A program made the translations under genes and the position numbers. DNA of 64,000 bases, taken from positions 81,920-145,919 of the forward strand of contig JAPPFB010000017.1 of the NCBI GenBank assembly GCA_028875225.1, read 5' to 3'. The notes beneath the pieces were generated by a model. It was given only the letters and a program-made list of their open reading frames with translations, was not told the origin of the DNA and searched no databases. Within the stretch, counting starts at the first letter, position 1, and every line of letters starts with the position of its first letter. The DNA comes from Chloroflexota bacterium (lineage in GTDB: Bacteria; Chloroflexota; Dehalococcoidia; Bin125). Below are positions 1,799-63,185 of this stretch, piece by piece.

Positions 1799-1833
1799 CT
1801 CTCTCCCCGAGGGAGAGGGTTAGGGTGAGGGCC
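1799..1833 (+). repeat. Family B hairpin repeat (CTCTCCC-N4-GGGAGAGGG + TTAGGGTGAGGGC)
   Basis: Same module at 46181-46276 (inverted pair), 62939-62973 and degenerate at 61153-61186. Confidence 0.8.
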
Positions 1834-1879: not shown

Positions 1880-2010
1880 CCGCTCTCCCCTGTTCCAAAG
1901 GGAGACGCCTGCCCACCTCGTTCTTCCCCCTTTCAGGAGGAGATGCCTGCCCCTACTTTCTCCCCCCTTCCAGGGGAAGATGCCGAAGGCAGAGGGGGTC
2001 CCCCGTCCCA
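1880..2010 (+). repeat. Family A composite/degenerate copy (C-rich hairpins ... GATGCCGAAGGCAGAGGGGGTCCC)
   Basis: Several C5-7/G5-7 hairpins followed by the conserved GCCGAAGGC + AGAGGGGG(C/T)CCC tail; lies in the efp-xseA spacer. Confidence 0.7.
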
Positions 2011-3574: not shown

Positions 3575-3585
3575 TGCCCGCCCTC

Positions 3586-3638
3586 AGACCTCCCCCTTTG
3601 GGGGAGGTGCGCCGAAGGCGCGGAGGGGGCCGCCCGGC
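3586..3638 (+). repeat. Family A hairpin element, immediately after xseB
   Basis: CCTCCCCC-tttg-GGGGGAGG + tgcGCCGAAGGCgcGGAGGGGGCC. Confidence 0.75.
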
Positions 3639-3939: not shown

Positions 3940-4752
3940 TTGGGATCCGGCCCGATGACACTCCGAATCGCCTGGTTCGCGACCGCCAGGGGCACGAGTT
4001 CGCGCAAGTTGCTCCACGCCGCGAACGACGCAATTCGCGACGGCCGACTGGACGCGGAGATCGTCTGCGTCGTCTGCAACCGGGTCCGCGGCCAGTCAGC
4101 CAACACGGACCTGTTTCTCGACGACGTCGAGCAGGCCGGAATCCCCTTGATCTCCAACAGCTCGCTGGAATGGCGTCGACGCGTAGCCGGCGAAATCTCG
4201 GTGCCCGGACAAGAACTCGCTTCCTGGCGGCGCGACTACGACCGCCATCTGTTCGAGCAAATCCGCGAGCACTCGCCCGATGTGGCAATGCTGGCCGGAT
4301 ACATGCTGGTCATCACCGACGTCATCTGCGACCACCTGCCCTGCCTCAACCTCCATCCCGCCCTCCCGGACGGGCCGATCGGCACCTGGCAGCAAGTCAT
4401 TCACGAACTCATCGCCCAGCGAGCGGACCGATCCGGCATGGTCCTGCAACGCGTGACCACGGAGCTCGACCGAGGTCCAACCGTCACCTGGGCCGAGTAC
4501 CCCATCCGCGGACCCCTGTTCGATCCGCTCTGGGCCGAATACGGCGACGACGCCGAATCCGAGACCCCGCTCTTCCACGCCATCCGCGAAGCCGGCGCCA
4601 GCCGCGAGCCCGCCTTCATCCTCCAGTCCCTGCAGGCAATCGCCGCCCGGAGCTCCGCTTCATCCACATCGCTCGCCGCATCGACCGGGGACGAGATAGG
4701 CTCGGACCTCACCGCAGAGGTCGAGTCGGAGATGAAGCGGCTAGAGATCTGA
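3940..4752 (+). CDS. Formyltransferase-family protein (PurN-like fold, divergent)
   Basis: Aligns by eye to PurN: RIAWFATARGTSS, PDVAMLAGYM, LNLHPALPDG (Asn/His of the NxH motif retained), TTELDRGP (Asp retained); extra C-terminal tail. Start may be ATG at 3955. Confidence 0.6.
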   Translation: MGSGPMTLRIAWFATARGTSSRKLLHAANDAIRDGRLDAEIVCVVCNRVRGQSANTDLFLDDVEQAGIPLISNSSLEWRRRVAGEISVPGQELASWRRDYDRHLFEQIREHSPDVAMLAGYMLVITDVICDHLPCLNLHPALPDGPIGTWQQVIHELIAQRADRSGMVLQRVTTELDRGPTVTWAEYPIRGPLFDPLWAEYGDDAESETPLFHAIREAGASREPAFILQSLQAIAARSSASSTSLAASTGDEIGSDLTAEVESEMKRLEI

Positions 4753-30275: not shown

Positions 30276-31307
30276 CTAGTCGCGGAGGTTGCGACGGGCG
30301 CCGGTGGCTCGGGCGACGTGGACGACCTGGTCGAGGTTCTGATAGGTGGGCACCCCGACCTCGGCGAAGATCTCGTTGACTCCGCTGCGGATTTCCTCGG
30401 TCAGCTTCCAGTCGGTGGCGGCGACGTTCTCTTCGAGTTCGCGCTCGTTGCGCATACCGACCAGGGCGCAGCTGACCCCTGGGTGGTCGAGGACCCAGGC
30501 GATGCCGAGCTGGGCGCAGGTCTTGCCGTAGCCGTCGGCGAGCTCCGCGAGTCGGTTGGCGATCTCGACCTCCTGCCTGAAGCGGTCGCTCTCGAACAGG
30601 GGCAGGTTGAAGGCGGTGCCGTTGCGCCGCCAGTCGCTCTCGTCGAATTGGTGATCGGGCTCGAACGCGGCGGTCAAGAGACCGAAGGCGAGCGAGCCGT
30701 AGGACATGAAGCCGACGCCGTTGGCCATGCACCAGGGCAACACGCGAGACTCCATCCGCCGGTCGAACATGTGGTAGCCGACCTGGTTGGCGACGATCGT
30801 GCCGTGACGCTGGCACTCCTCCATCATGTCGATGTTGAAGTTGGAGACGCCGTAATGGCGGATCTTGCCGGCCTGCTTCAATTCTTCCAGACCCTCCATC
30901 GTCTCTTCGAAGGGCGTGTCGTGGTCGGGCCAGTGAATCAGCATCAGGTCGACGTAGTCGGTGTTCAGCCGGCGCAGGCAACCCTCGGTGTGCTCGATGA
31001 TGTGGTCCTTCTTGGAGTTGAGGCCGATCACCTGGGGCACGTCGTTGTAGTCGAAGCCGACCTTGGTCACCAACACAACTTCGTTGCGCCGGCTGCCCAG
31101 GCCCTCGGCGAGCAGCTCCTCGGAGTGATTCGGGCCGTATACCTCGGCCGTGTCGAACAGGGTGATGCCGCGGTCGATCGCCATGTTCACGGCGCGTGCG
31201 GCCTCGCTGCGGTCGATGTGACCGTACATGTTGCCGCTCATCTCCCACGTGCCGAAGCCGACGGCGGAAGCCACCAGGTCGCTGTTTCCGAATCGTCGCT
31301 GTTCCAT
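30276..31307 (-). CDS. Aldo/keto reductase (paralog 3 of 3)
   Basis: About 75% identity to paralogs 1 and 2; start taken at MEQRRFGNSD (31307) to match the paralogs. Confidence 0.85.
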   Translation of the reverse strand: MEQRRFGNSDLVASAVGFGTWEMSGNMYGHIDRSEAARAVNMAIDRGITLFDTAEVYGPNHSEELLAEGLGSRRNEVVLVTKVGFDYNDVPQVIGLNSKKDHIIEHTEGCLRRLNTDYVDLMLIHWPDHDTPFEETMEGLEELKQAGKIRHYGVSNFNIDMMEECQRHGTIVANQVGYHMFDRRMESRVLPWCMANGVGFMSYGSLAFGLLTAAFEPDHQFDESDWRRNGTAFNLPLFESDRFRQEVEIANRLAELADGYGKTCAQLGIAWVLDHPGVSCALVGMRNERELEENVAATDWKLTEEIRSGVNEIFAEVGVPTYQNLDQVVHVARATGARRNLRD

Positions 31308-31397
31308 GGCTTGATTCCTGTCTAGTTGGTTGGATGCCAATCGGATGCGCAGCGCCTAAGTTACTGCTTTGGCGGGGAGCGGCACTATAGTGACGTT

Positions 31398-43902: not shown

Positions 43903-46170
43903 ATGGCTATCGAACCCGACGCCCTCCTGCGAATCGAGGAGGCATACGCGAAGCTGCGCGACGGCATTGACGTCGCCCGACGACGAATCGATCGACCGCT
44001 GACGCTGGCCGAGAAGATCCTCTTCGGTCACTTCACCGATCCGGCCAATCAGCCGATCGAACGCGGCGTGGACCACGCCGCGCTGCAGCCGGACCGAGTC
44101 GCGCTACAGGACGCCACAGCCCAGATGGCGCTGCTCCAGTTCGAACTGGCCGGACTGCAACGCGTCGTGGTGCCGACCACCGTCCACTGTGACCACTTGA
44201 TCCAGGCTCGGATCGGCGCCGACCCAGATCTCGAAGTCGCCATCTCGGAGAACGAGGAAGTCTACGAGTTCCTGCGCAGCGCCGCCGCCCGCTATGGCGC
44301 GGGCTTCTGGAAGCCCGGCTCCGGCATCATTCACCAGGTCGTCTTTGAGAACTACGCGTTCCCCGGCGGCATGATGATCGGTACCGACTCGCATACGCCC
44401 AACGCCGGAGGCATGGGAATGATCGCGATCGGCGTCGGGGGCGCCGACGCCGTCGACGTGATGGCCGGACTCGGCTGGGGCGTCACCATGCCAAGGCTGA
44501 TCGGCGTCCACCTGACCGGCGAACTCGACGGCTGGACCGCGCCCAAGGACGTCATCCTGCGCGTCGCCGACGAACTCACGGTTAAGGGCGGTACCGGCGC
44601 GATCGTCGAGTACTTCGGTCCCGGCCTCCAGTCGATGAGCGCCACCGGTCGCGGCACCGTCACCAACATGGGCGCCGAAATCGGCGCGACGACCTCGCTC
44701 TTCCCCTTCGACGAGCGAACCGCTGCGTATCTGCGCAGCACCGACCGCGCCGACATCGCCGCACTGGCAGAGGCGAATGCCGACCATCTCCGCGCCGACG
44801 ACGACGTCGCCGACGCGCGTCACGAAATCTTCGACCGGGTGATCGAGATCAACCTCAGTGAGCTGGAGCCGGCCTGGGTCGGACCGCACACGCCCGACCT
44901 GCGTAACACCGTGGCAGAGATTCGCGGATTCATGGAGTCTGAGGCCTACCCGCTCAATGTGACCAACGCCCTGATCGGCTCATGCACCAACTCCTCATAC
45001 GAGGACATGAGCCGCGCCGCCCACATCGCCCGCCAGGCCGCCGACGCCGGCCTCGAACTGCGCGCGCCCCTGTTGGTCACGCCGGGCTCCGAACAGATCC
45101 GCGCCACGACCAAGCGCGACGGCCAGATCGACGCCTTCGAGTCGGCCGGCGCGACCGTGCTCGCCAATGCCTGCGGACCCTGCATCGGTCAATGGAAGCG
45201 CGAGGACATCGAGGGCGACGAGCAGAACACGATCGTCACGTCCTTCAACCGCAACTTCCCGGGCCGCAACGACGCCAACCGCAACACCCTCGCCTTCATC
45301 GGCTCGCCCGAGCTGGTCGTCGCCACCGCCTTCGCCGGTGAAATGGGATTCGATCCTCGCAGCGACTCCATCGCCACGGCCGACGGCGAGTTCCGCTTCT
45401 CTGCGCCCACAGGTGACGAGTTGCCGGCAGATGGGTTCGATGTCGGGGACGAGGGATTTATCGCTCCGCCCAAAGATGGCAGCGACGTCGACGTAATCGT
45501 CAGCCCTGAGAGCGACCGTCTCCAGCGGCTCACCCCGTTCAACGCCTGGGACGGTAACGACTACACCTTCATGTCGCTGCTACTCAAGACCCAGGGCAAG
45601 ACCACGACCGACCACATATCGCCGGCCGGTTCCTGGTTGCGATTCCGCGGCCATCTCGAGAACATCTCCGGCAACCTCTTCAGCGGCGGGGTCAACGCCT
45701 TCACCGGCGAGACCGGAACCACGCTCAATCAGATCAGCGGTCAGGCCGACCAACCAATCAACGAGGTCGCCCGCGCCTACAAGGACGCCGGCATCCGCTG
45801 GGTCGCCGTGGGCGACGAGAACTACGGCGAGGGATCCAGCCGCGAGCACGCCTCGATGGAGATCCGCTGGAGCGGCGGCTACATGGTGATCGCCCGCTCG
45901 TTCGCCCGCATCGCCGAGACCAACCTGAAAAAGCAGGGCATCCTCGCACTCACCTTCAGCGACCCGGCGGACTACGACCTCGTCGGCCAGCTCGACCGCT
46001 TGAGCGTGCTCGGATTGTCTGAGTTCGCCCCCGGCCAGCCTCTCACCCTGCGCATCGACCACGAGGACGGCTCCAGCGACGAGGTCGCCGTCAACCACAG
46101 TTACACCGACGAGCAGATCACTTGGTTCCAGGCCGGCAGCGCCCTGAACAAGATCGCGGCGTCGCAGTAG
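43903..46170 (+). CDS. acn: Aconitate hydratase, mitochondrial-type (ACO2-like)
   Basis: 755 aa; [13 protein letters not shown]...[13 protein letters not shown]...[11 protein letters not shown]...[12 protein letters not shown]; domain order and size of the mitochondrial-type enzyme rather than AcnA/AcnB. ATG at 43903; the track ORF from 43207 is an overlap artefact. Confidence 0.88.
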
Positions 46171-46180
46171 CGCCAGTCAG

Positions 46181-46276
46181 GCCCTCACCCTAACCCTCTC
46201 CCTTGGGGAGAGGGAAAACGAGCGAAGAGCGAAAGATCGGCTCCCTCTCCCACTGGGAGAGGGCTGGGGTGAGGGC
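46181..46276. repeat. Inverted pair of Family B modules forming a long potential hairpin (acn to mdh spacer)
   Basis: GCCCTCACCCTAACCctctcccTTGGggagaggg ... ccctctcccACTGggagagggCTGGGGTGAGGGC with a 26-nt spacer. Confidence 0.8.
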
Positions 46277-46408
46277 CCGCCAAGAGGCAAGTCTCGTCAT
46301 CTCAGCCACTCACATAGCAGACTCAAAGCCCCCTATCCGATAACAATTGGACAAGTCCCGTCTATTCCCCGCGGGTATGGCTGCCCGTGTTCAGAAAGGT
46401 CCGAGACC

Positions 46409-47356
46409 ATGCGAACGAAGGTGACCGTCATTGGAGCTGGAAACGTCGGCGCGACCACAGCTCAGCGACTCGCCGAGCGCGGATACGCCGACGTTGTCCT
46501 GGTCGATATCGTCGATGGCCTGCCCCAGGGCAAGGCGCTCGACATGTACGAGGCTTCGCCTGTGATCGGCATCGACTCCAGCATCACCGGCGCTACCGAC
46601 TACGGCCCAACCGCGGGCTCCGACATCGTCGTGATCACCTCCGGCGTCGCCCGCAAACCAGGCATGTCCCGCGACGACTTGCTGCAAATCAACATGGGCA
46701 TCGTCGACTCGGTCACCCGCGCCGCGATCGCCGAGTCGCCCGACGCCACCATCGTCGTGGTCTCGAATCCGCTCGACGCGATGTGCCACGTCGCCTACGA
46801 CGCGGCAGGGATTCCCAGTTCGCGCGTCGTGGGCATGGCCGGCATTCTCGACACCGCGCGCTACCGCTCTTTCCTCGCCGAAGCGATCAACGTCTCGGTC
46901 GAGGACATCAACGCCTTCGTCCTCGGCGGCCACGGCGACACCATGGTCCCGCTCGCTTCCTACACCACCGCCGCCGGCATTCCGATCACGAAACTCCTGC
47001 CTCAGGACCAGCTCGACCAGATCATCCAGCGCACCCGCGACGGTGGCGCCGAGATCGTCAACCTGCTCAAGACCGGTTCCGCCTTCTACGCGCCCTCCGC
47101 CGCCGTCGCGCAGATGGTCGACGCCATCGCGCTCGACAAGCGCCGCATCCTCCCCTGCGCCGCCCTATTGAACGGCGAGTACGGGGTTGACGGCCTGTTC
47201 ATCGGTGTGCCGGTCGTGCTCGGCCAGAACGGGATCGAGCAGATCCTCGAGATCAGCCTCACCGACGAGGAGCAGTCTCAGCTCCAGCACTCTGCCGACG
47301 CCGTCCAGGGCCTCGTCGACGACATGGCCCGACTCAGCCAGAACAACGGCGGCTAA
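46409..47356 (+). CDS. mdh: Malate dehydrogenase (LDH-like)
   Basis: VIGAGNVG; LDH/MDH family throughout. Confidence 0.92.
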
Positions 47357-47470
47357 ATCCGCACTTCGACTGACCAGGATCGCACAGCGACCGTCCAACA
47401 TCGAACAGAATCGAACAGAATCGTCCAAGACCGAACAACGAGAGCGCTCAAACCCCGCTGAGGACTGAAC

Positions 47471-48859
<1,389 letters not shown>

Positions 48860-48865
48860 GGCTCT

Positions 48866-48945
48866 TTTCTCCCCCCGCTTTGCGGGGGGAGATGCCGAAA
48901 GCCTGCCCCCGCGAAGGCGGGGGGCAGAGGGGGCTCCCGCTTTGC
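48866..48945 (+). repeat. Family A two-hairpin element (fumC to PPOX spacer)
   Basis: TCCCCCCGC-tttg-GCGGGGGGA + gatGCCGAAAGC + CTGCCCCCGC-gaag-GCGGGGGGCAG + AGGGGGCTCCC. Confidence 0.85.
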
Positions 48946-48988
48946 GCCCCTACACTTCTCGTATCGCAGAAACCGGAGCGGAGTAACC

Positions 48989-49468
48989 ATGCCCAGCCGA
49001 CGCAACATGATCGCCATGACCGACGAGGAAGCCAAGGAGTTCATCGAGACCGGCTGGACGCTGCAGGTCGCATCCAACGGCCACAATGGCTTCCCGCACA
49101 TGGTCGCCATGTGGTACGGCGTGATTGACGACAAGATCCACTTCACCACCTACGCCAAGGCGCAGAAGGTGCTCAATCTCAAGCGCGATCCGCGGATCAC
49201 GGTCATGCTGGAGTCGGGCGTCGAGTATTCGAAGATCAAGGGTCTCGTGATCGAGGGCGAAGCCGACGTGATCGAGAACGACCCCCAGCTGGTGATGGCC
49301 GTCCAGGACGCCACCGGCGAGAAGCGTAATCCCAACGCCCAGGGCCGCTCCACCACCCCCATGGATGACGAGCAGCGAGTCCGCCAGGCTTCCAAGCGCG
49401 CGGTCGTGCGAATCAATCCCACCCGCGTCTACAGCTGGGACCACAACAAGCTCGGCGGCGTCTACTGA
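48989..49468 (+). CDS. Pyridoxamine 5'-phosphate oxidase family / PPOX-class F420-dependent protein
   Basis: Split-barrel PNPOx-like sequence (GWTLQVASNGHNGFPHMVAMWY). Confidence 0.7.
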   Translation: MPSRRNMIAMTDEEAKEFIETGWTLQVASNGHNGFPHMVAMWYGVIDDKIHFTTYAKAQKVLNLKRDPRITVMLESGVEYSKIKGLVIEGEADVIENDPQLVMAVQDATGEKRNPNAQGRSTTPMDDEQRVRQASKRAVVRINPTRVYSWDHNKLGGVY

Positions 49469-49660
49469 CGCGCTTGCGCCTGGTTACAATGACCCCACAG
49501 TCAGGCGGAGGGATCCGTATGGCAACTGCCAAACCAACGGACGACCGGCAGACCAATACGCGCCCGCCAGAGACGGAGCAGGAGCCCCTCCGTCTGTATG
49601 GCGTGGAACCTCCTTGGACGCTCTTCTTCATCGCCCGGGACTGGTGGCGAGAGCGGAAAG

Positions 49661-50140
49661 CTAGACAGCAAGAATCGCAGCCACCGCAATAGCAATCGCA
49701 GTTGCCCCCGTCAGCAACAATGCAGCGCCAACCAGGGCCGACTTGACGCGGAGCAGCCTCCTGCTGCGGCGCTCTGCGGTCCATATTTCTTCAGCAGCAC
49801 CATGAAACGCACTGGTCTCATCCTCCCCCGAGGTCGCGCGAGACATTGCCAATGGCGTGGGAATGACGTCGGAGCGACCGATCAGCAATGCGGCCGTTAA
49901 CACCACGATGTTCGCGATAAACAAGCCCGCCGCCGCCGTCACTGCGGCTGCGACTCCGCCTTGCTCAACCGGCGCAGCAAAGATCAGGGCCGATCCCAGC
50001 AGGGCAATCATCGCCGCACTCAGAGCGAAAGCGCTGCCCAGCTTCGAGTCCAATGATCTGCCATATTCGATTTGCTCGCGCAGACGCCACAGCGCGGTCT
50101 CGTAGGCCAATCGCGCCCCCGAAACATCATCAGCCATCAC
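49661..50140 (-). CDS. Hypothetical membrane protein
   Basis: 159 aa; three predicted TM segments; overlaps the downstream cupin gene start by 4 nt; no recognisable domain. Confidence 0.45.
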   Translation of the reverse strand: MMADDVSGARLAYETALWRLREQIEYGRSLDSKLGSAFALSAAMIALLGSALIFAAPVEQGGVAAAVTAAAGLFIANIVVLTAALLIGRSDVIPTPLAMSRATSGEDETSAFHGAAEEIWTAERRSRRLLRVKSALVGAALLLTGATAIAIAVAAILAV

Positions 50141-50442
50141 CCCGCTCCGGCCCCGTGTTCTCCGCCCTCGGGCCCGTAGAACACCACCCAGACGGCCAGG
50201 TCGTCGCTGAAGTCCTCAAACCGGTGCCGCGCCCCGGCACCCACGAAGAACGTGTCGCCCGGGCCGCACGCCATCCGCTTGTTGCCCAGGGCGAACACGC
50301 CCGTGCCTGACGCCACGATGTAGACCTCGTCCTGATTATGTGGACTCTGCTTATCCACCTCATGCGGTGTGTAGAGGCCTACCGACATCGTCCCGTGCCG
50401 CAGCATCTCGCGGTATTCGTCGGGCTGGACTTGGCTGGCCAT
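50137..50442 (-). CDS. Cupin-domain protein
   Basis: Cupin_2-like core (VYIVASGTGVFALGNKRMACGPGDTFFVGAGARHRF). Confidence 0.7.
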   Translation of the reverse strand: MASQVQPDEYREMLRHGTMSVGLYTPHEVDKQSPHNQDEVYIVASGTGVFALGNKRMACGPGDTFFVGAGARHRFEDFSDDLAVWVVFYGPEGGEHGAGAG

Positions 50443-50508
50443 GACAATCTCCTCGCGCTGAACCCTTGGCTCAGCTTATGATCGACGAGTGTCCGAATCT
50501 GGTGGAGG

Positions 50509-51045
50509 ATGAGTCTGATGCCCCTCTCGCAACTGGAAGTGATTCAGGAAGGCCTCGACGGTATGCACGCCATGCTCGACCGTGCCGTCCCCGACATGAC
50601 CGCCGACCAATGGAATGCCCGACCCGCCGGCGACGGCGTCAGCGCGTTTTTCTCGCTCTGGCACTATGTCCGCACCGAGGACAACATCGTCAACTGGGTC
50701 GTCCATCGCCGCCCCACCGTCTGGCTCGACGGCGAGTGGGACCAGTGCTTTGGCCTGCACAGAACCTCCCAGGGCACCGGCATGACCAAAGAGGAAGCCG
50801 ACGCCGTCCTGCTCAACGACGTCGACGCCTGGCTCACCTACCAGCAGGGAGTCTGGGTCGTCACACGCGAATGGGTCTCATCGCTCACCGAGGACGATCT
50901 GCCAAAAGAAATCGTCATCCGGCCGACGCCGCCGATGTCGATCTGGCAGGCGCTGACCGGCATGCTGCTCTACCACGGCTATCGTCACGTCGGAGAAGTC
51001 GAACACGCGCGCGGCCTGCTCGGACTTGGCGGCCTGACGATCTGA
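50509..51045 (+). CDS. DinB/YfiT-family metal-dependent protein
   Basis: DinB_2-like His positions (WHYVRTED, YHGYRHVGE). Confidence 0.65.
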   Translation: MSLMPLSQLEVIQEGLDGMHAMLDRAVPDMTADQWNARPAGDGVSAFFSLWHYVRTEDNIVNWVVHRRPTVWLDGEWDQCFGLHRTSQGTGMTKEEADAVLLNDVDAWLTYQQGVWVVTREWVSSLTEDDLPKEIVIRPTPPMSIWQALTGMLLYHGYRHVGEVEHARGLLGLGGLTI

Positions 51046-51049
51046 TTCG

Positions 51050-51985
51050 CTAGAACACCGCAATGGGATTGACCGGCGAACCTGTGCCGCCCTGGATGTT
51101 CAGCGGCAGGACGCAGAGCAACATCTCGTAGCGTCCTTCCTCGGCGCAGGCTTCGGCCAACGGTTGCAGCAGCGCGTTGTCCAGCAATACAACGCCGAAG
51201 CTGTAGATCACGCCGTGCACCGGCCAGGCGAGCCCGTATTCGCTAGGTCTGTGGTCCATCATGTCCCAGCCCAGCATCGAGACATCCTGGTCTCGGATGA
51301 AAATGCTGCACGACGCGTGCAGCCCTGGTGACGGCGGACTGCCAAAGAAGTCGTCGGGATGATCGGCCTGGTAGGCCTCGCGGCCGGAGTAGACGAGCAG
51401 CGCGTCGCCCGGCTCGACGGCGACGCCCTGCGCATCGGCGATGTCCTGCAGCTCGGCGCCCATGACCGGCTGATCGAACGTGACGTACGGCTCGCCGCGG
51501 AATCTGGGCACATCAAGCAGCACGGCCTTCGTGAAGATGCCCTGGTTCCAGGCCGTGACATCGGCGAATGTGGCGCCCGTCGCAGAGTCAATCGCCTCGT
51601 CGGGGTCGCGACCCTGCCAGATCCCGTCTGAGTCCCAGATGTGGCACAGGGCGTCGACGTGGGTGAACGTGTGGCCGTGATAGATGAAGCCGTAGTAGTC
51701 GACCACCGCGCCGTCACCCTCGTCGCCACGATCGAACGTCCGCATGAAGTGCTGCGCCGGGGTCGGATTGAGCGCCGATGGATCCTTCGGATAGGGCCGG
51801 GACAGCGAAACCGTCCGCCCGTTCTGCACCGAGGCAAGCGCGCTCAGTCGCTTCTCGACGGTGATCAGATTGACCGCGCCGACTGAATCGTCGTCGCCCC
51901 AACGACCCCAGTTGCGCCGCTCCTTGAAGTTGCGCATGATCTCTTCGCGGCTTGGCGACGGGTACTTCTGCTGGTGACTGGCCAT
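51050..51985 (-). CDS. Putative cyclase / kynurenine-formamidase-like protein
   Basis: PF04199 motif HxGTHxDxxxH present as YHGHTFTHVDALCH; start at MASHQQ. Confidence 0.75.
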   Translation of the reverse strand: MASHQQKYPSPSREEIMRNFKERRNWGRWGDDDSVGAVNLITVEKRLSALASVQNGRTVSLSRPYPKDPSALNPTPAQHFMRTFDRGDEGDGAVVDYYGFIYHGHTFTHVDALCHIWDSDGIWQGRDPDEAIDSATGATFADVTAWNQGIFTKAVLLDVPRFRGEPYVTFDQPVMGAELQDIADAQGVAVEPGDALLVYSGREAYQADHPDDFFGSPPSPGLHASCSIFIRDQDVSMLGWDMMDHRPSEYGLAWPVHGVIYSFGVVLLDNALLQPLAEACAEEGRYEMLLCVLPLNIQGGTGSPVNPIAVF

Positions 51986-52113
51986 CGTGCATTCCTTTCC
52001 AGGATTCACAAGTAACGCCGTGAGACGCTATGGATCGCAGCGAAGATAGCGCCCGGACATCCACGCGATATCCTCAGTCGCGAACCTTGAGAAGCACACA
52101 GACAGGACACAGC

Positions 52114-52962
52114 ATGACCGACTTCGGCGTATCGATGTTCCCGACCGACTACGCGATCCAGCCGCCCGAGCTGGGTCGCGAAGTGGAAGCGCGCGGCTTC
52201 GAGTCGCTCTGGTTCCCCGAGCACACGCACATTCCAACCTCGCGCATTTCACCCTGGCCGGGCGGCGGCGACCTGCCCCAGGAATACTGGCACACCCACG
52301 ACCCGTTCGTCTCACTCATGGCAGCCGCCGCAGCTACTGAGACGATCAAAGTCGGCACCGGCATCCTGCTCGTCCCCGAGCACGATGTGCTGGTCTCAGC
52401 CAAGTCGGCGGCCTCACTCGACATGATCTCCGGCGGCCGCCTGATTCTGGGCATTGGCGCCGGCTGGAATGCGGAAGAACTCGAGAACCACGGCTGGAAC
52501 TTCAAGGATCGCTGGAAGGTCACCCGCGAGATCGTCCTCGCCTGGCGCGAGCTCTGGACCCAGGACGAGCCCGAGTTCCACGGCGAATTCATCGACTTCG
52601 ACCCCGTCTGGAGCTATCCGAAGCCGGTGGACGGCGATGTCCCCGTCCTGCTGGGAGCGCAGTCGAAGTGGTCCTTCGACCGGGTGGTTGACTACTGTGA
52701 CGGCTGGCTGCCGATCAACGGTCGCGGCGACCTGCGGGCCGACATGGAGCAGCTCCGCGCCGCAGCCGACCGAGGCGAACGCGACTTCGAGACCATCCAG
52801 CGCAGCGTCTTCGGAGTCGGACCCGACCCAAAACTCGTCCAGGATCTGATTGACATGGGCTTCCAGCGGATCATCTTCGGCCTGCCGCCGGCGGACGCCG
52901 GGACCGTGATTCCGCTCCTCGATCGCTACAACGACGTCAAGGCCGAGTTCAACGGCAGCTAG
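52114..52962 (+). CDS. LLM-class F420-dependent oxidoreductase
   Basis: Luciferase-like fold (MFPTDYAI...LWFPEHTHIP...GTGILLVPEH...GIGAGW); ATG at 52114. Confidence 0.78.
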   Translation: MTDFGVSMFPTDYAIQPPELGREVEARGFESLWFPEHTHIPTSRISPWPGGGDLPQEYWHTHDPFVSLMAAAAATETIKVGTGILLVPEHDVLVSAKSAASLDMISGGRLILGIGAGWNAEELENHGWNFKDRWKVTREIVLAWRELWTQDEPEFHGEFIDFDPVWSYPKPVDGDVPVLLGAQSKWSFDRVVDYCDGWLPINGRGDLRADMEQLRAAADRGERDFETIQRSVFGVGPDPKLVQDLIDMGFQRIIFGLPPADAGTVIPLLDRYNDVKAEFNGS

Positions 52963-52983
52963 TCACAGAAAGCCCTCTCCCAT

Positions 52984-53056
52984 CTCCCCCCGCTGAGCGG
53001 GGGGAGATGCCGCAAGCCTGCCCCGCACTTTATGCGGGGGCAGAGGGGGGGCTCCC
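52984..53056 (+). repeat. Family A two-hairpin element (LLM to trmH spacer)
   Basis: Near-identical architecture to 48866-48945; the 3' G-run abuts the GTG start at 53057. Confidence 0.85.
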
Positions 53057-53839
53057 GTGAGCAACGAGGAACCAGTCCAACGACTTACGCGCGCCCGCCT
53101 GCGCCAGTTGCAGCAACTCAAGACGGCTCGAGAACGCCGAGAGCAGGGTCGGTTTCTGATCGATGGCGAAAAGCTCGTTCGCGACGCCCTCGAAGCCGGC
53201 GCGCCGGTGGTCGAGATCTTGTCCACGACTCCCGAGCTGTGGCAACAAGCGGACCTACCGCTCACTGCGCTGAGTCGAGCAGACGCAGAACGAATCTCCG
53301 ACACACGAACGCCGCAGGGACACTTCGCGCTCGTTCGAGATCATCTCGGCGAGGTCCAGACACCCTCGGGCGATCGCTGGCAAGTCGTCGCGCTGGACGC
53401 GATCCAGGATGCCGGCAATGTCGGCGGCATCATCCGCTCGGCCGCAGCATTCGGCGTTGACGCATTGCTGGTCGGGCCAGGCAGCGCCGATCCCACCCAT
53501 CCCAGGGTCACGCGTGCGGCCACAGGTGCCTGGTTCAACATACGGATTAGTCGATCAATGGACTTGTTCGCGGACGTCAAGGAGCTACGCGAACAGGGAG
53601 CAGCCGTCTGGGCGGCCGACCAGCGAGGCGCACCGTTGCAGGATCAGAAGCTGCCGTCAAAGATCGTATGGATCTTCGGCAACGAGGGCTCAGGAATCAG
53701 CGCCGAGCTTGAGCCGCTCGTCGATGAGCGAGTCGCAGTCCCGATCGCCGAAGGCGTCGATTCGCTCAACGTCAATGTCGCCGCCGGCATCATCCTTCAT
53801 CATGCATATGCGAGAGTTCACGAGAGGAGCGCGACGTGA
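53057..53839 (+). CDS. TrmH/SpoU-family RNA 2'-O-methyltransferase (RlmB-like)
   Basis: SpoU motifs (ALDAIQDAGNVGGIIRSAAAFG; IFGNEGSGIS; VDSLNVNVAAGIIL); GTG start directly after a repeat element. Confidence 0.82.
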   Translation: MSNEEPVQRLTRARLRQLQQLKTARERREQGRFLIDGEKLVRDALEAGAPVVEILSTTPELWQQADLPLTALSRADAERISDTRTPQGHFALVRDHLGEVQTPSGDRWQVVALDAIQDAGNVGGIIRSAAAFGVDALLVGPGSADPTHPRVTRAATGAWFNIRISRSMDLFADVKELREQGAAVWAADQRGAPLQDQKLPSKIVWIFGNEGSGISAELEPLVDERVAVPIAEGVDSLNVNVAAGIILHHAYARVHERSAT

Positions 53840-54612
53840 AGATCACCACCTGGAACGTGAACTCGATCAGGGCGCGAGAAGACCGCGTCCTCAACTGGCT
53901 CGACCAGCACCAGCCCGACGTCCTCTGCCTGCAAGAGCTCAAGTGCACCGAGGAACAATTCCCCTTCGACGGCTTCGACGCGCTCGGCTACAACGTCGTC
54001 CTGCACGGACAGAAGTCCTACAACGGCGTCGCAATCGTCTCGCTCGACTATCCGGACTGGGTAGAGGAGGCCGTGCCCTGGCCCGAGGACGATCAGTCGC
54101 GCGGGATCGCCGCAGAGGTCAACGGCGTGCGCGTCGTCAGCCTCTACTGCCCCAACGGCCGCGAGGTCGGTCACGAGATGTATCGCTACAAACTGGATTG
54201 GTTCGACCGTCTGCGATCATGGCTCGATGGGCAGGATCAGGAGGCAGAGTTGGTACTCACTGGCGATTACAACATCACTTTCGACGACCGCGACGTGAAC
54301 GACCCCGAGTTCTGGCACGAACGAATTCTCTGCTCGACGCCGGAACGGGAACGGCTCAACGCCCTGGTCGACTGGGGCCTGACCGACGCGCTGCGCCTGT
54401 TCGACGAGTCGGACGGCGTCTACACCTGGTGGGACTACCGAACCGGCGGCGTGCAGCAGGACAAGGGATTGCGGATTGATCATCACCTGATCACCGCGCC
54501 GCTGGTCGACCGGGCCGTCGCAGTCGAGATCGACGTCGAAGAGCGGCAGATGGAGGGCGACGGCGACAAGCCCTCCGACCACGCACCGGTCACACTGGTG
54601 CTTGCGGACTAG
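53836..54612 (+). CDS. xth: Exodeoxyribonuclease III
   Basis: MKITTWNVNSIRAR...LCLQELK; ExoIII/APE family. Confidence 0.92.
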   Translation: MKITTWNVNSIRAREDRVLNWLDQHQPDVLCLQELKCTEEQFPFDGFDALGYNVVLHGQKSYNGVAIVSLDYPDWVEEAVPWPEDDQSRGIAAEVNGVRVVSLYCPNGREVGHEMYRYKLDWFDRLRSWLDGQDQEAELVLTGDYNITFDDRDVNDPEFWHERILCSTPERERLNALVDWGLTDALRLFDESDGVYTWWDYRTGGVQQDKGLRIDHHLITAPLVDRAVAVEIDVEERQMEGDGDKPSDHAPVTLVLAD

Positions 54613-60949: not shown

Positions 60950-61007
60950 CCGCATCATCGTCATTCCCGCGCTCGACGACACCGCCGTCATTCCCCCGCT
61001 TGCAGCG

Positions 61008-61186
61008 GGAATCTCGATTCCTTCTCCCTGAGGAGACCTGCGCGTAAACCCATCAAAGTCGGCCCCGCGTAGGCGGGGCCCAGCGCATGTTGTCTGGACA
61101 CGCCGCCCCCGCCTGCGCGGGGGCGACTTCTTCAAGGAGCTACGCGCAGGTCTCCTGAGGGAAAGGGCTAGCGTGAGGGCCGTACC
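61008..61186. repeat. Family C nested-palindrome composite element (MITE-like), copy 1
   Basis: Outer ~25-bp inverted repeat (cttctccctgaggagacctgcgcgta / tacgcgcaggtctcctgagggaaag) enclosing two GC hairpins (GGCCCCGCG-tagg-CGGGGCC; CGCCCCCGC-ctgc-GCGGGGGCG); sits between convergent ppc and the DUF35 gene. Confidence 0.8.
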
Positions 61187-62938: not shown

Positions 62939-62973
62939 CCCTCTCCCTGAGGGAGAGGGTTAGGGTGAGGGCG
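62939..62973 (+). repeat. Family B hairpin repeat
   Basis: ccctctcccTGAGggagagggTTAGGGTGAGGGC; an inverted partial copy follows at 63021-63047. Confidence 0.8.
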
Positions 62974-63018: not shown

Positions 63019-63185
63019 CAGACCCTCACCCCGGCCCTCTCCCGGTGGAGGCTTGCGCGTCAACCAACCAAGGTCGGCCCCGCGCAGGCGGGGCCCTGCA
63101 GCGCCTATCCGGTCACCGCGCCCCCGCCTGCGCGGGGGCGACTTCATCGAGGGATTACGCGCAACTCTCCAGTGGGAGAGGCAGT
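63019..63185. repeat. Family C nested-palindrome composite element, copy 2
   Basis: Same two inner hairpins (GGCCCCGCG-cagg-CGGGGCC; CGCCCCCGC-ctgc-GCGGGGGCG) and a homologous outer stem (cctctcccggtggaggcttgcgcgtcaa / ttacgcgcaactctccagtgggagagg). Confidence 0.8.

Follow-up and report, generated by a model that had tools for sequence, protein, structure and literature searches.

Family A, a probable REP/BoxC-type intergenic repeat with a mirrored G-rich tail in Dehalococcoidia

A 64,000-nucleotide stretch of a Chloroflexota genome (Dehalococcoidia; contig JAPPFB010000017.1, positions 81,920 to 145,919), referred to here as the window, carries a GC-rich hairpin element that recurs between co-directional genes. 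Two copies lie within positions 48866-53056, one between fumC and a PNPOx-family gene and one between a luciferase-like monooxygenase gene (LLM) and trmH (SpoU). The question raised by this locus is whether the element, named Family A, serves the genes beside it or is a repeat that happens to reside there. An earlier, sequence-only reading favored the former and proposed an attenuator or a switch sequestering the Shine-Dalgarno (SD) sequence, or else a stabilizing or processing site at mRNA 3' ends. Comparison with related genomes makes it probable that Family A consists of short interspersed intergenic repeats of the REP/BoxC type and is not a dedicated regulator of fumC-PNPOx or LLM-trmH. 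Units are present or absent at orthologous sites, their orientation bias depends on their position relative to gene starts, and their G-rich tail mirrors one arm of the first hairpin and covaries with it.

Unit anatomy and turnover at orthologous spacers

Units from the window and related loci were collected as a strict set of 189, a profile-defined set of 207 and, with looser parsing, a set of 236. A unit is 40-70 nt long and is composed of hairpin 1, a T followed by a mini-hairpin, and a G-rich tail. Hairpin 1 is a perfect 8-10 bp C-run/G-run stem of the form X-CTCCCCC/GGGGGAG-X' with a pyrimidine arm (Y) and a purine arm (R). The five window copies and the 189 related units all parse as X-CTC4-8 / loop / G4-8AG-X', with loops of 3-5 nt in the window and 3-9 nt family-wide instead of the constant 4 nt assumed before. 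On the 3' side of the T follow a mini-hairpin of the type G-stem-GNA-stem-C, the tail X''-GAGGGGG(G), termed RH, and then YYCCC, whereas TTCCCC lies upstream of about 70% of the units. The GCCGAAGGC linker and the AGAGGGGG(C/T)CCC tail of the sequence-only reading are real, and so is its optional second hairpin in the copies inside 48866-53056. The mini-hairpin stem is perfect in 182/189 units and occurs in eight different sequences; its loop is GNA in 177 of these 182 (GAA 109, GGA 30, GCA 23, GTA 15), with a C-G closing pair throughout. As DNA, mini-hairpins of the d(C-GNA-G) type have extraordinary stability, and as RNA they are far less stable (PMC13037366; PMC3201870). The T and the mini-hairpin constitute a second loop (loop 2) of 10-14 nt, which reaches about 33 nt in copies A and B. 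These two belong to a long subfamily with an extra hairpin, hp2, between a degenerate mini-hairpin and the tail. The long form is also found at the related loci L003, L017, L068, L082, and L109, of which L082 and L109 hold variants near-identical to copy A, and the hp2 stems of the window and L198 differ by compensated changes. The folding energy of hairpin 1 is about -20 to -30 kcal/mol, and z values for complete window copies range from -2.7 to -3.9. An alignment of 36 units with MAFFT and RNAalifold misaligned the variable-loop hairpin and recovered covariation of the mini-hairpin only (CG to UA, 14 sequences); explicit parsing of the units was used in its place.

Eight loci encode a FumC 89-98% identical to that of the window. 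Six of them (92-98%) keep the gene order and two do not. At the orthologous spacers the following was observed.

fumC-PNPOx spacer, window and L197: long variant
fumC-PNPOx spacer, L199, L200, and L201: short variants with different mini-hairpins
fumC-PNPOx spacer, L198: no unit, spacer of 35 nt
fumC-PNPOx spacer, L202: a different repeat
LLM-trmH spacer, window and L198: long variants with different hp2
LLM-trmH spacer, L197, L201, and L202: short variants
LLM-trmH spacer, L199 and L200: empty, 41 and 27 nt

Each of the two spacers has Family A in five genomes, the window included, and lacks it in two. This pattern of filled and empty sites indicates an unstable, invasive or gene-converting repeat and not a conserved regulator. 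No unit was present at 80 fumC loci from JGI metagenomes (59-74% identity), which are too distant to serve as controls for orthologous sites. Also, because the repeat is stop-free and GC-rich, the annotation of start codons is disturbed. Automatic callers place the trmH start inside or upstream of the repeat at L201 (11658) and L202 (12907), and in one metagenome-assembled genome (MAG) a truncated product of 93 aa is called (L001, 16088-16369). Annotators should expect open reading frames to run into Family A repeats and gene-start calls to shift, and may treat such G/C hairpins in Chloroflexota symbiont genomes as repeats rather than regulators.

In the window, a profile search combined with parsing defines five copies, A to E, at refined coordinates and at the places where five had been seen before. 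An nhmmer profile built from 174 related units matches these five only within the 64 kb (E = 1e-10 to 0.04), and the core pattern has an expectation of 0.00 in shuffled sequence. All five are situated between co-directional genes in sense orientation, according to a self-trained hexamer gene caller that reproduces the database calls.

Copy A, 48868-48938, plus strand: long variant in the spacer fumC/PNPOx-family gene; Y arm TCTCCCCCC 48868-48876, loop region GC-TTT-GC, R arm GGGGGGAGA 48884-48892, T 48893, degenerate mini-hairpin GCCGAAAGC 48894-48902, hp2 48903-48927, mirror tail AGAGGGGG 48926-48933, then CTCCC
Copy B, 52973-53056, plus strand: long variant in the spacer LLM/trmH (SpoU); C-rich upstream flank CCCTCTCCC 52973-52981, Y arm TCTCCCCCC 52983-52991, R arm GGGGGGAGA 52999-53007, T 53008, GCCGCAAGC 53009-53017, hp2 53018-53043, mirror tail AGAGGGGGGG 53042-53051, CTCCC 53052-53056, GTG of trmH/SpoU 53057
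Copy C, 3581-3635, plus strand: short variant of the C-G*G class in the spacer xseB/formyltransferase-like gene; flank CCCTC 3581-3585, Y arm CCTCCCCC 3589-3596, loop TTT, R arm GGGGGAGG 3600-3607, T 3608, mini-hairpin GCGCC-GAA-GGCGC 3609-3621, tail GGAGGGGG 3622-3629
Copy D, 30270-30221, minus strand: short variant of the G-C*T class in the spacer between an unnamed gene and an aldo-keto-reductase-like gene; flank CCTCCC 30270-30265, Y arm GCTCCCCC 30263-30256, loop TTGCA, R arm GGGGGAGC 30250-30243, T 30242, mini-hairpin GCC-GAA-GGC 30241-30233, tail TGAGGGGG 30232-30225, TCCC 30224-30221
Copy E, 1959-2004, plus strand: short variant of the T-A*A class with a decayed R arm in the spacer efp/xseA; Y arm TCTCCCCCC 1959-1967, R arm GGGGAAGA 1973-1980 with one mismatch to Y, T 1981, mini-hairpin GCC-GAA-GGC 1982-1990, tail AGAGGGGG 1991-1998, TCCCCC 1999-2004
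Partial units, 1882-1914 and 1921-1953, plus strand: two tandem tail-less units upstream of copy E, each hairpin 1 followed by (C/T)GCCTGCCC(C)

It had been claimed that every copy follows a stop codon and precedes the next start by 0-60 nt. A stop codon does lie 5-20 nt upstream in four of the five cases; the distance to the start does not hold for copy C, which begins 6 nt past the xseB stop (3574) and is about 305 nt away from the next gene start (3940). Copy A begins 9 nt past the fumC stop (48857-48859) and ends 51 nt ahead of the PNPOx-family start (48989). Copy D begins 5 nt past the stop of the gene at 30276-31340 (minus strand), with the aldo-keto-reductase-like start (30178) 42 nt on, and copy E ends 42 nt ahead of the xseA ATG (2047). 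At copy B the observation that the tail adjoins the trmH GTG is correct: the tail ends 5 nt upstream, so that its G run stands at SD distance (GAGGGGGGG-CTCCC-GTG). Tandem tail-less units similar to those at 1882-1953 occur at L051 (4583-4660, within an array at 4583-4691). At both places, partial units made of hairpin 1 and linker form short tandem arrays with one complete unit last, which suggests slippage or unequal exchange within the repeat.

Could Family A nevertheless be a bistable RNA, whose CTCCCCC arm pairs either with the tail or with the 3' arm of hairpin 1, so that translation or read-through downstream is controlled? The G tail ahead of trmH, the SD distance found at at least eight sites, the capacity of the G runs to pair with a C run, and the two folds of copy E, which differ by 5 kcal/mol only, speak for such an attenuator or SD-sequestering switch. 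However, the tail mirrors the 3' arm and cannot pair in register with CTCCCCC; the supposed sharing of this arm is true for the bare G run only. Folding of alternative conformers had been named as a check on the idea. Barring the 3' arm of hairpin 1 from pairing costs the optimal RNA fold 13-20 kcal/mol in copies A-D, and 5 kcal/mol in copy E, which is decayed. In addition, the distance to the next start spans 3 to >500 nt, and the adjoining genes are unrelated (MTHFR, short-chain dehydrogenase, enoyl-CoA hydratase, IGPD, ferritin, and others). The same spacers are empty in close relatives, and units occur as inverted doublets and as antisense insertions inside genes. Scanning against Rfam at gathering and permissive E-value thresholds gave nothing relevant at Family A. 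The turnover between close relatives means that Family A is not a gene-specific RNA switch. A riboswitch or attenuator, with its diverse neighbors, empty spacers, unequal folds and lack of an Rfam match, was set aside; the switch idea is largely refuted and we consider it very improbable. The view that the element is not a plain terminator stands, with no U tract and no Rfam family. Like intrinsic terminators, Family A places a strong GC-rich stem-loop directly past stop codons, but it differs from them by the missing U tract, by the conserved tail and mini-hairpin, and by copies that lie in operon-like strings and abut starts. An intrinsic terminator was rejected as a candidate on the U-tract criterion, and a scan of 46000-54000 for sigma-70 promoters and terminators found no site at any copy, the tails being G/C-rich.

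Mirror tail and three-strand covariation

The tail X''-GAGGGGG is the mirror of the purine arm GGGGGAG-X' and not its direct repeat. At positions 2-8 the mirror relation between R and RH holds, position by position, in 211-223 of 227 units. At position 1, the pair X'/X'' is A/A, G/G or C/T in 228/236 units, a number reached by none of 10,000 permutations. Among the 189 strict units, X/X'/X'' is T/A/A in 127, G/C/T in 37, C/G/G in 21, and something else in 4. Each class is seen with 11-12 different mini-hairpins, which are located between X' and X''. Outside the Chloroflexota, 23 of 25 units fit one of the classes (G/G 12, A/A 7, C/T 4). At the second position, R and RH change jointly from G to A in six units, and one side changes alone in three and two units (Fisher 1e-8). 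A small subfamily with the R arm GGGGGAAGC and the tail TGAAGGGGG carries a mirrored double change in five units, three of which have the compensating T in Y. Mixed doublets are informative as well: seven combine a unit of the C-G*G class with one of the G-C*T class, and X'' fits its own unit and not the tail of the partner.

A class II purine-motif intrastrand triplex has the order Y-R-RH, with a third strand antiparallel to the purine strand and G*G-C and A*A-T triplets (PMC4666352). The layout of Family A is that of such a triplex with a structured second loop, as a fold predicted from the sequence. Under the definition used for PIT/ITxF elements, a Y block is followed by its complementary R block and then by a mirror RH block allowing at least 6-8 triplets of the G*G-C and A*A-T (T*A-T) kind with at most one mismatch, and both are found here: copies A-D form 8-9 triplets without mismatch, and copy E has one mismatch. 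The short loop of that definition is lacking, since loop 2 is too long; it folds on itself, so that the effective connector is short. The loop limits are 1-6 nt for ITxF and 0-10 nt according to Hoyne et al. (PMC4666352), and the structured second loop puts Family A outside the loop limits of the published ITxF search.

It seems possible, although rather doubtful, that the three-strand covariation is comparative evidence for an intrastrand DNA triplex, built from hairpin 1, the GNA mini-hairpin and a reverse-Hoogsteen G tail, as the structure that is selected or recognized. Family A would then be an invasive mini-repeat of several phyla and perhaps a substrate of an enzyme acting on single-stranded DNA. 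Several points weigh against a triplex. Of the five units that combine GGGGGAAGC as R with TGAAGGGGG as tail, two have no compensating change in Y. Common descent of subfamilies could account in part for the three covariation classes. The third base favored opposite C-G in antiparallel triplexes would be T according to the literature of the 1990s. The upstream TTCCCC could pair in Watson-Crick fashion with the G tail in most units, which would give a three-way junction instead. For TM_ECO, the triplex motif of Escherichia coli, in vivo footprinting gave no stable triplex (PMC4666352). A G-quadruplex was also considered and set aside, as each unit has two G runs only and the mirrored A and the link between X' and X'' are left unexplained. 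If the triplex is the selected structure, Family A would represent a natural and evolutionarily maintained tertiary fold of DNA and not a coincidence of sequence.

The described elements closest to Family A are known as BoxC, PIT or TM_ECO, a class II G/C-rich triplex motif given as CCCTCNCCC-N3-6-GGGNGAGGG-N3-GGGNGAGGG (Hoyne et al. 2000 as summarized in Holder et al. 2015, PMC4666352). TM_ECO lies between genes without strand bias, and its two subtypes are sometimes joined as inverted pairs. It acts neither as a promoter nor as a terminator; a triplex forms in vitro, none was detected in vivo, and the motif has been linked to local genomic instability (PMC4666352). Family A resembles these elements in having Y, R, and mirrored R on one strand, a size of about 37-45 nt, many copies, a strictly intergenic location in its main hosts, inverted pairs of two different subtypes, no tie to a class of genes, and polymorphism for presence/absence and small deletions between close relatives. 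In contrast to TM_ECO, with arms CCCTCNCCC/GGGNGAGGG/GGGNGAGGG, the arms CTCCCCC/GGGGGAG/GAGGGGG of Family A are not self-mirror. Its second loop consists of a T with a C-GNA-G mini-hairpin of 9-13 nt or of a hairpin segment of about 33 nt, against 3 nt in TM_ECO. Other differences are the hosts found here (Chloroflexota and scattered phyla) and a class in which a C-G pair stands opposite T. The TM_ECO consensus was tested as a home for Family A and rejected, for the units do not match it. Whether intrastrand DNA triplex motifs have any biological role is a question of long standing since BoxC/PIT, for which published work found no function. Unlike the arms of TM_ECO, non-self-mirror arms allow triplex geometry, which asks for a mirror tail, to be separated from a Watson-Crick alternative, which asks for a direct-repeat tail, and together with the third-strand covariation they make the triplex question testable.

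Orientation, spread and rival explanations

Solitary units in co-directional spacers are sense in 50 and antisense in 19 cases (72% sense, p = 2e-4; 46:19 without the window). This bias is due entirely to a lack of antisense copies in the 50 nt ahead of a downstream start, where the sense:antisense ratio is 29:2, as compared to 21:17 farther away; with the window and syntenic loci excluded, the ratios are 12:1 within 30 nt and 23:18 beyond 30 nt. Random orientation across the genome had been named as a refutation of the sequence-only reading, and this applies by half: orientation is random away from starts and strongly constrained next to them. The sequence-only reading was right in attaching meaning to the G-rich 3' end next to starts. 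Its statement that copies are always in sense orientation holds for the window and its syntenic relatives but not for the family, in which many units lie in convergent spacers or inverted doublets. Convergent spacers contain 61 units and divergent ones 18, and sense solitary units have a median distance of about 30 nt from the upstream stop. Tail-to-tail inverted doublets comprise 76-78 units (about 38%) with spacers of 15-51 nt; these occur in relatives and none in the window. A comparison of strand with chromosome position, as a proxy for replication direction, covered seven assemblies (six labeled chromosomes and one 2.65-Mb contig), in which solitary units are too few. The simplest reading of the constraint near starts is that a sense copy replaces the SD sequence by its GAGGGGG tail, the G run of which ends 5-8 nt ahead of ATG/GTG at at least eight sites, and that an antisense copy, presenting CCCCCTC, would be removed by selection.

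As a REP/BoxC-type repeat, Family A would spread and turn over at the level of DNA, through insertion or deletion of copies or gene conversion among them, probably by way of a folded single-stranded form. Copies would survive mainly just 3' of stop codons, where harm is small. Effects on expression would be by-products: hairpin 1 would put a very stable stem-loop a few nucleotides past the stop, and the tail of a sense copy that abuts the next gene, as for trmH at 53057, may take the SD role. Antisense copies near starts would not be tolerated, which would create the apparent orientation rule. A role as an mRNA 3' stabilizer or processing site, one of the alternatives proposed earlier, is possible as a side effect. 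Two findings weigh against the repeat as described. No target-site duplication was found, nor any transposase among the ten genes lying between units, which have housekeeping functions or give no Pfam match; for want of a transposase or target-site duplication, we infer mobility from distribution only. Moreover, all 15 units of the window and its syntenic relatives are sense, and a transcript-level benefit in the clade of the window would be compatible with this.

The last point belongs to a rival explanation, in which a REP-like RNA function is selected: hairpin 1, with or without hp2, would block 3' exonucleases past the stop or act as a processing or partial, U-less termination site, and so set the relative expression of neighboring genes. 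The position of four of the five window copies 5-20 nt past a stop, the preference for gene 3' ends seen in convergent over divergent spacers and in the sense median, the stability of hairpin 1 with the z values of whole copies, and the 15/15 sense units agree with it. But a palindromic hairpin 1 needs neither an orientation nor a conserved mirror tail nor a GNA triloop, and GNA loops are much weaker in RNA (PMC13037366). There is no orientation preference more than 50 nt from a start, the same spacers are empty in close relatives, and BoxC/PIT elements are without terminator activity (PMC4666352). Enrichment at gene 3' ends is expected equally from purifying selection against the disruption of promoters. 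This explanation appears unlikely to us.

Another rival accepts a mobile or recombinogenic DNA repeat and replaces the fold by a Watson-Crick three-way junction. Its arms would be hairpin 1, the GNA mini-hairpin, and a helix of the flank TTCCCC with the tail; an enzyme of single-stranded DNA or a host protein would recognize it, and the mirror and the X'/X'' link would reflect protein contacts or descent. It fits with the frequency of the upstream TTCCCC, with minimum-free-energy folds of copies C and D (RNA and DNA) that pair flank with tail, and with the mutual complementarity of the two tails of a doublet. The failure to see the TM_ECO triplex in vivo (PMC4666352) and the presence of CCGAAGG-type mini-hairpins in known recognition sites of single-stranded DNA, e.g., ssiA and the N4 promoters (PMC13037366), point the same way. 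Yet in-register pairing of flank and tail extends in the T-A*A class only, and units without the flank, such as copy A, still have an intact tail. Watson-Crick pairing predicts neither the tracking of X' by X'' nor the joint G-to-A changes in R and RH, and the tails of mixed doublets mismatch each other at X'' while matching their own units. A three-way junction as the relevant fold likewise seems improbable.

Distribution, insertions in genes and other repeats

A sample of about 1 Mb from MAGs of sponge-associated Dehalococcoidia/Chloroflexota contains more than 200 Family A units. With the tail left out of the query, a degenerate pattern for hairpin 1 and linker matches at least 114 genomic stretches, nearly all of them from Dehalococcoidia/Chloroflexota MAGs and many from sponges. 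Other phyla among the matches listed, with one copy or a few, are Bacteroidota, Firmicutes, Proteobacteria, and Patescibacteria, with a few viral contigs; the hosts listed include Actinobacillus indolicus, Dialister succinatiphilus, Rhodanobacter, a Nomurabacteria MAG, Lentimicrobiaceae, Flavobacteriaceae, and Clostridia. The unqueried tail is intact in most non-Chloroflexota matches listed and degenerate in Dialister, Rhodanobacter, a Rhodospirillaceae MAG, and one Oscillospiraceae match. Seven matches were obtained among 2.9 million viral contigs. The IMG/VR versions (L205-L211) have a longer first hairpin (…CTCCCCCAAAT…ATTTGGGGGAG…), with linker, mirror tail, and X'/X'' classes unchanged. 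In blastn, neither PLSDB plasmids nor complete E. coli genomes matched the consensus unit, although the low-complexity filter may hide G runs.

In a gammaproteobacterial MAG of 39% GC the units are GC islands, six of them in 8 kb. In low-GC genomes, units are inserted in frame and antisense inside mnmE (L029), recJ (L103), and an ABC ATPase gene (L113), and a further one resides in the region encoding the N-terminus of a cytochrome c assembly protein (low-GC MAGs). The in-gene units of low-GC Flavobacteriaceae, Nomurabacteria, and gammaproteobacterial MAGs have these coordinates.

L029, 2440-2476: in-gene unit
L103, 5380-5419: in-gene unit
L113, 6630-6673: in-gene unit
L113, 5593-5636: in-gene unit

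Such units add a peptide, e.g., APSAFGISPQGGE, of the type (A/T)PSAFG(I/T)SP, in a loop, and an alignment to the solved MnmE structure 3gee places extra residues at the insertion site. In the window and its clade Family A is intergenic, and the window has no in-gene unit. Rickettsia palindromic elements (RPE) are selfish repeats of about 100-150 nt that lie in frame in protein genes. Family A is like them in its in-frame units in mnmE, recJ, and the ABC ATPase gene of low-GC genomes, which add a peptide, and unlike them in its size of 37-45 nt, its different sequence, and its intergenic location in the clade of the window. For annotation this means that Family A can supply SD-like sequences or insert peptides into proteins of other phyla.

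With REP, BIME, and REPIN elements, which RAYT transposases mobilize, Family A shares the character of short, GC-rich, palindromic intergenic repeats that are enriched at gene 3' ends, solitary or in inverted doublets, and variable between strains. REPs can stabilize upstream mRNA. Unlike REPs, Family A has no GTAG or CGTC tag at the hairpin foot (its flanks are TTCCCC and YYCCC), and the mirror tail and the GNA mini-hairpin are features of its own. No RAYT (Y1 transposase) gene is among the ten genes flanked by Family A units, which are a small sample.

The TM_ECO consensus itself has five exact and two 2-mismatch matches in the window, against 0.17 exact matches expected. Motifs of the TM_ECO/BoxC type (GGGNGAGGG-N3-GGGNGAGGG) are situated as follows.

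1800-1833, plus strand: TM_ECO/BoxC-type motif
46180-46213, minus strand, with 46243-46277, plus strand: TM_ECO/BoxC-type motifs
62939-62973, plus strand, with 63021-63050, minus strand: TM_ECO/BoxC-type motifs
61147-61180, plus strand: degenerate TM_ECO-type motif with two mismatches

The matches near 1811, 46182, 46255, 61159, 62951, and 63023 are TM_ECO-type elements separate from Family A. Among the exact ones is an inverted pair whose second loops are TTA and CCG, as in E. coli type A with type B, and one motif abuts the Family A cluster at 1800-2004. TM_ECO was previously reported in Proteobacteria; judging from these matches, it is present here in a Chloroflexota MAG.

A second repeat of about 130 nt is found at 61020-61150 and 63040-63175, with the hairpins CCCCGCGYAGGCGGGG and CCCCCGCCTGCGCGGGGG within an inverted GCGCGTAA/TTACGCGC. 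Each copy adjoins a TM_ECO-type motif, and the two may form a composite element. A third small repeat has the core CCGTCATTCCCGC...GCGGGAAT(C) and is located at 60960-61015 of the window, at 7900-7950 of L202, and at other loci, e.g., L102 and L035; this is the repeat that L202 carries in the fumC-PNPOx spacer, at the site of Family A in the window. Strand asymmetry in the window follows gene direction, the coding strands being C-rich and A-rich. The GC skew reaches -0.2 and the AT skew +0.18 where genes lie on the plus strand, and both signs reverse at 22-32 kb, where genes lie on the minus strand.

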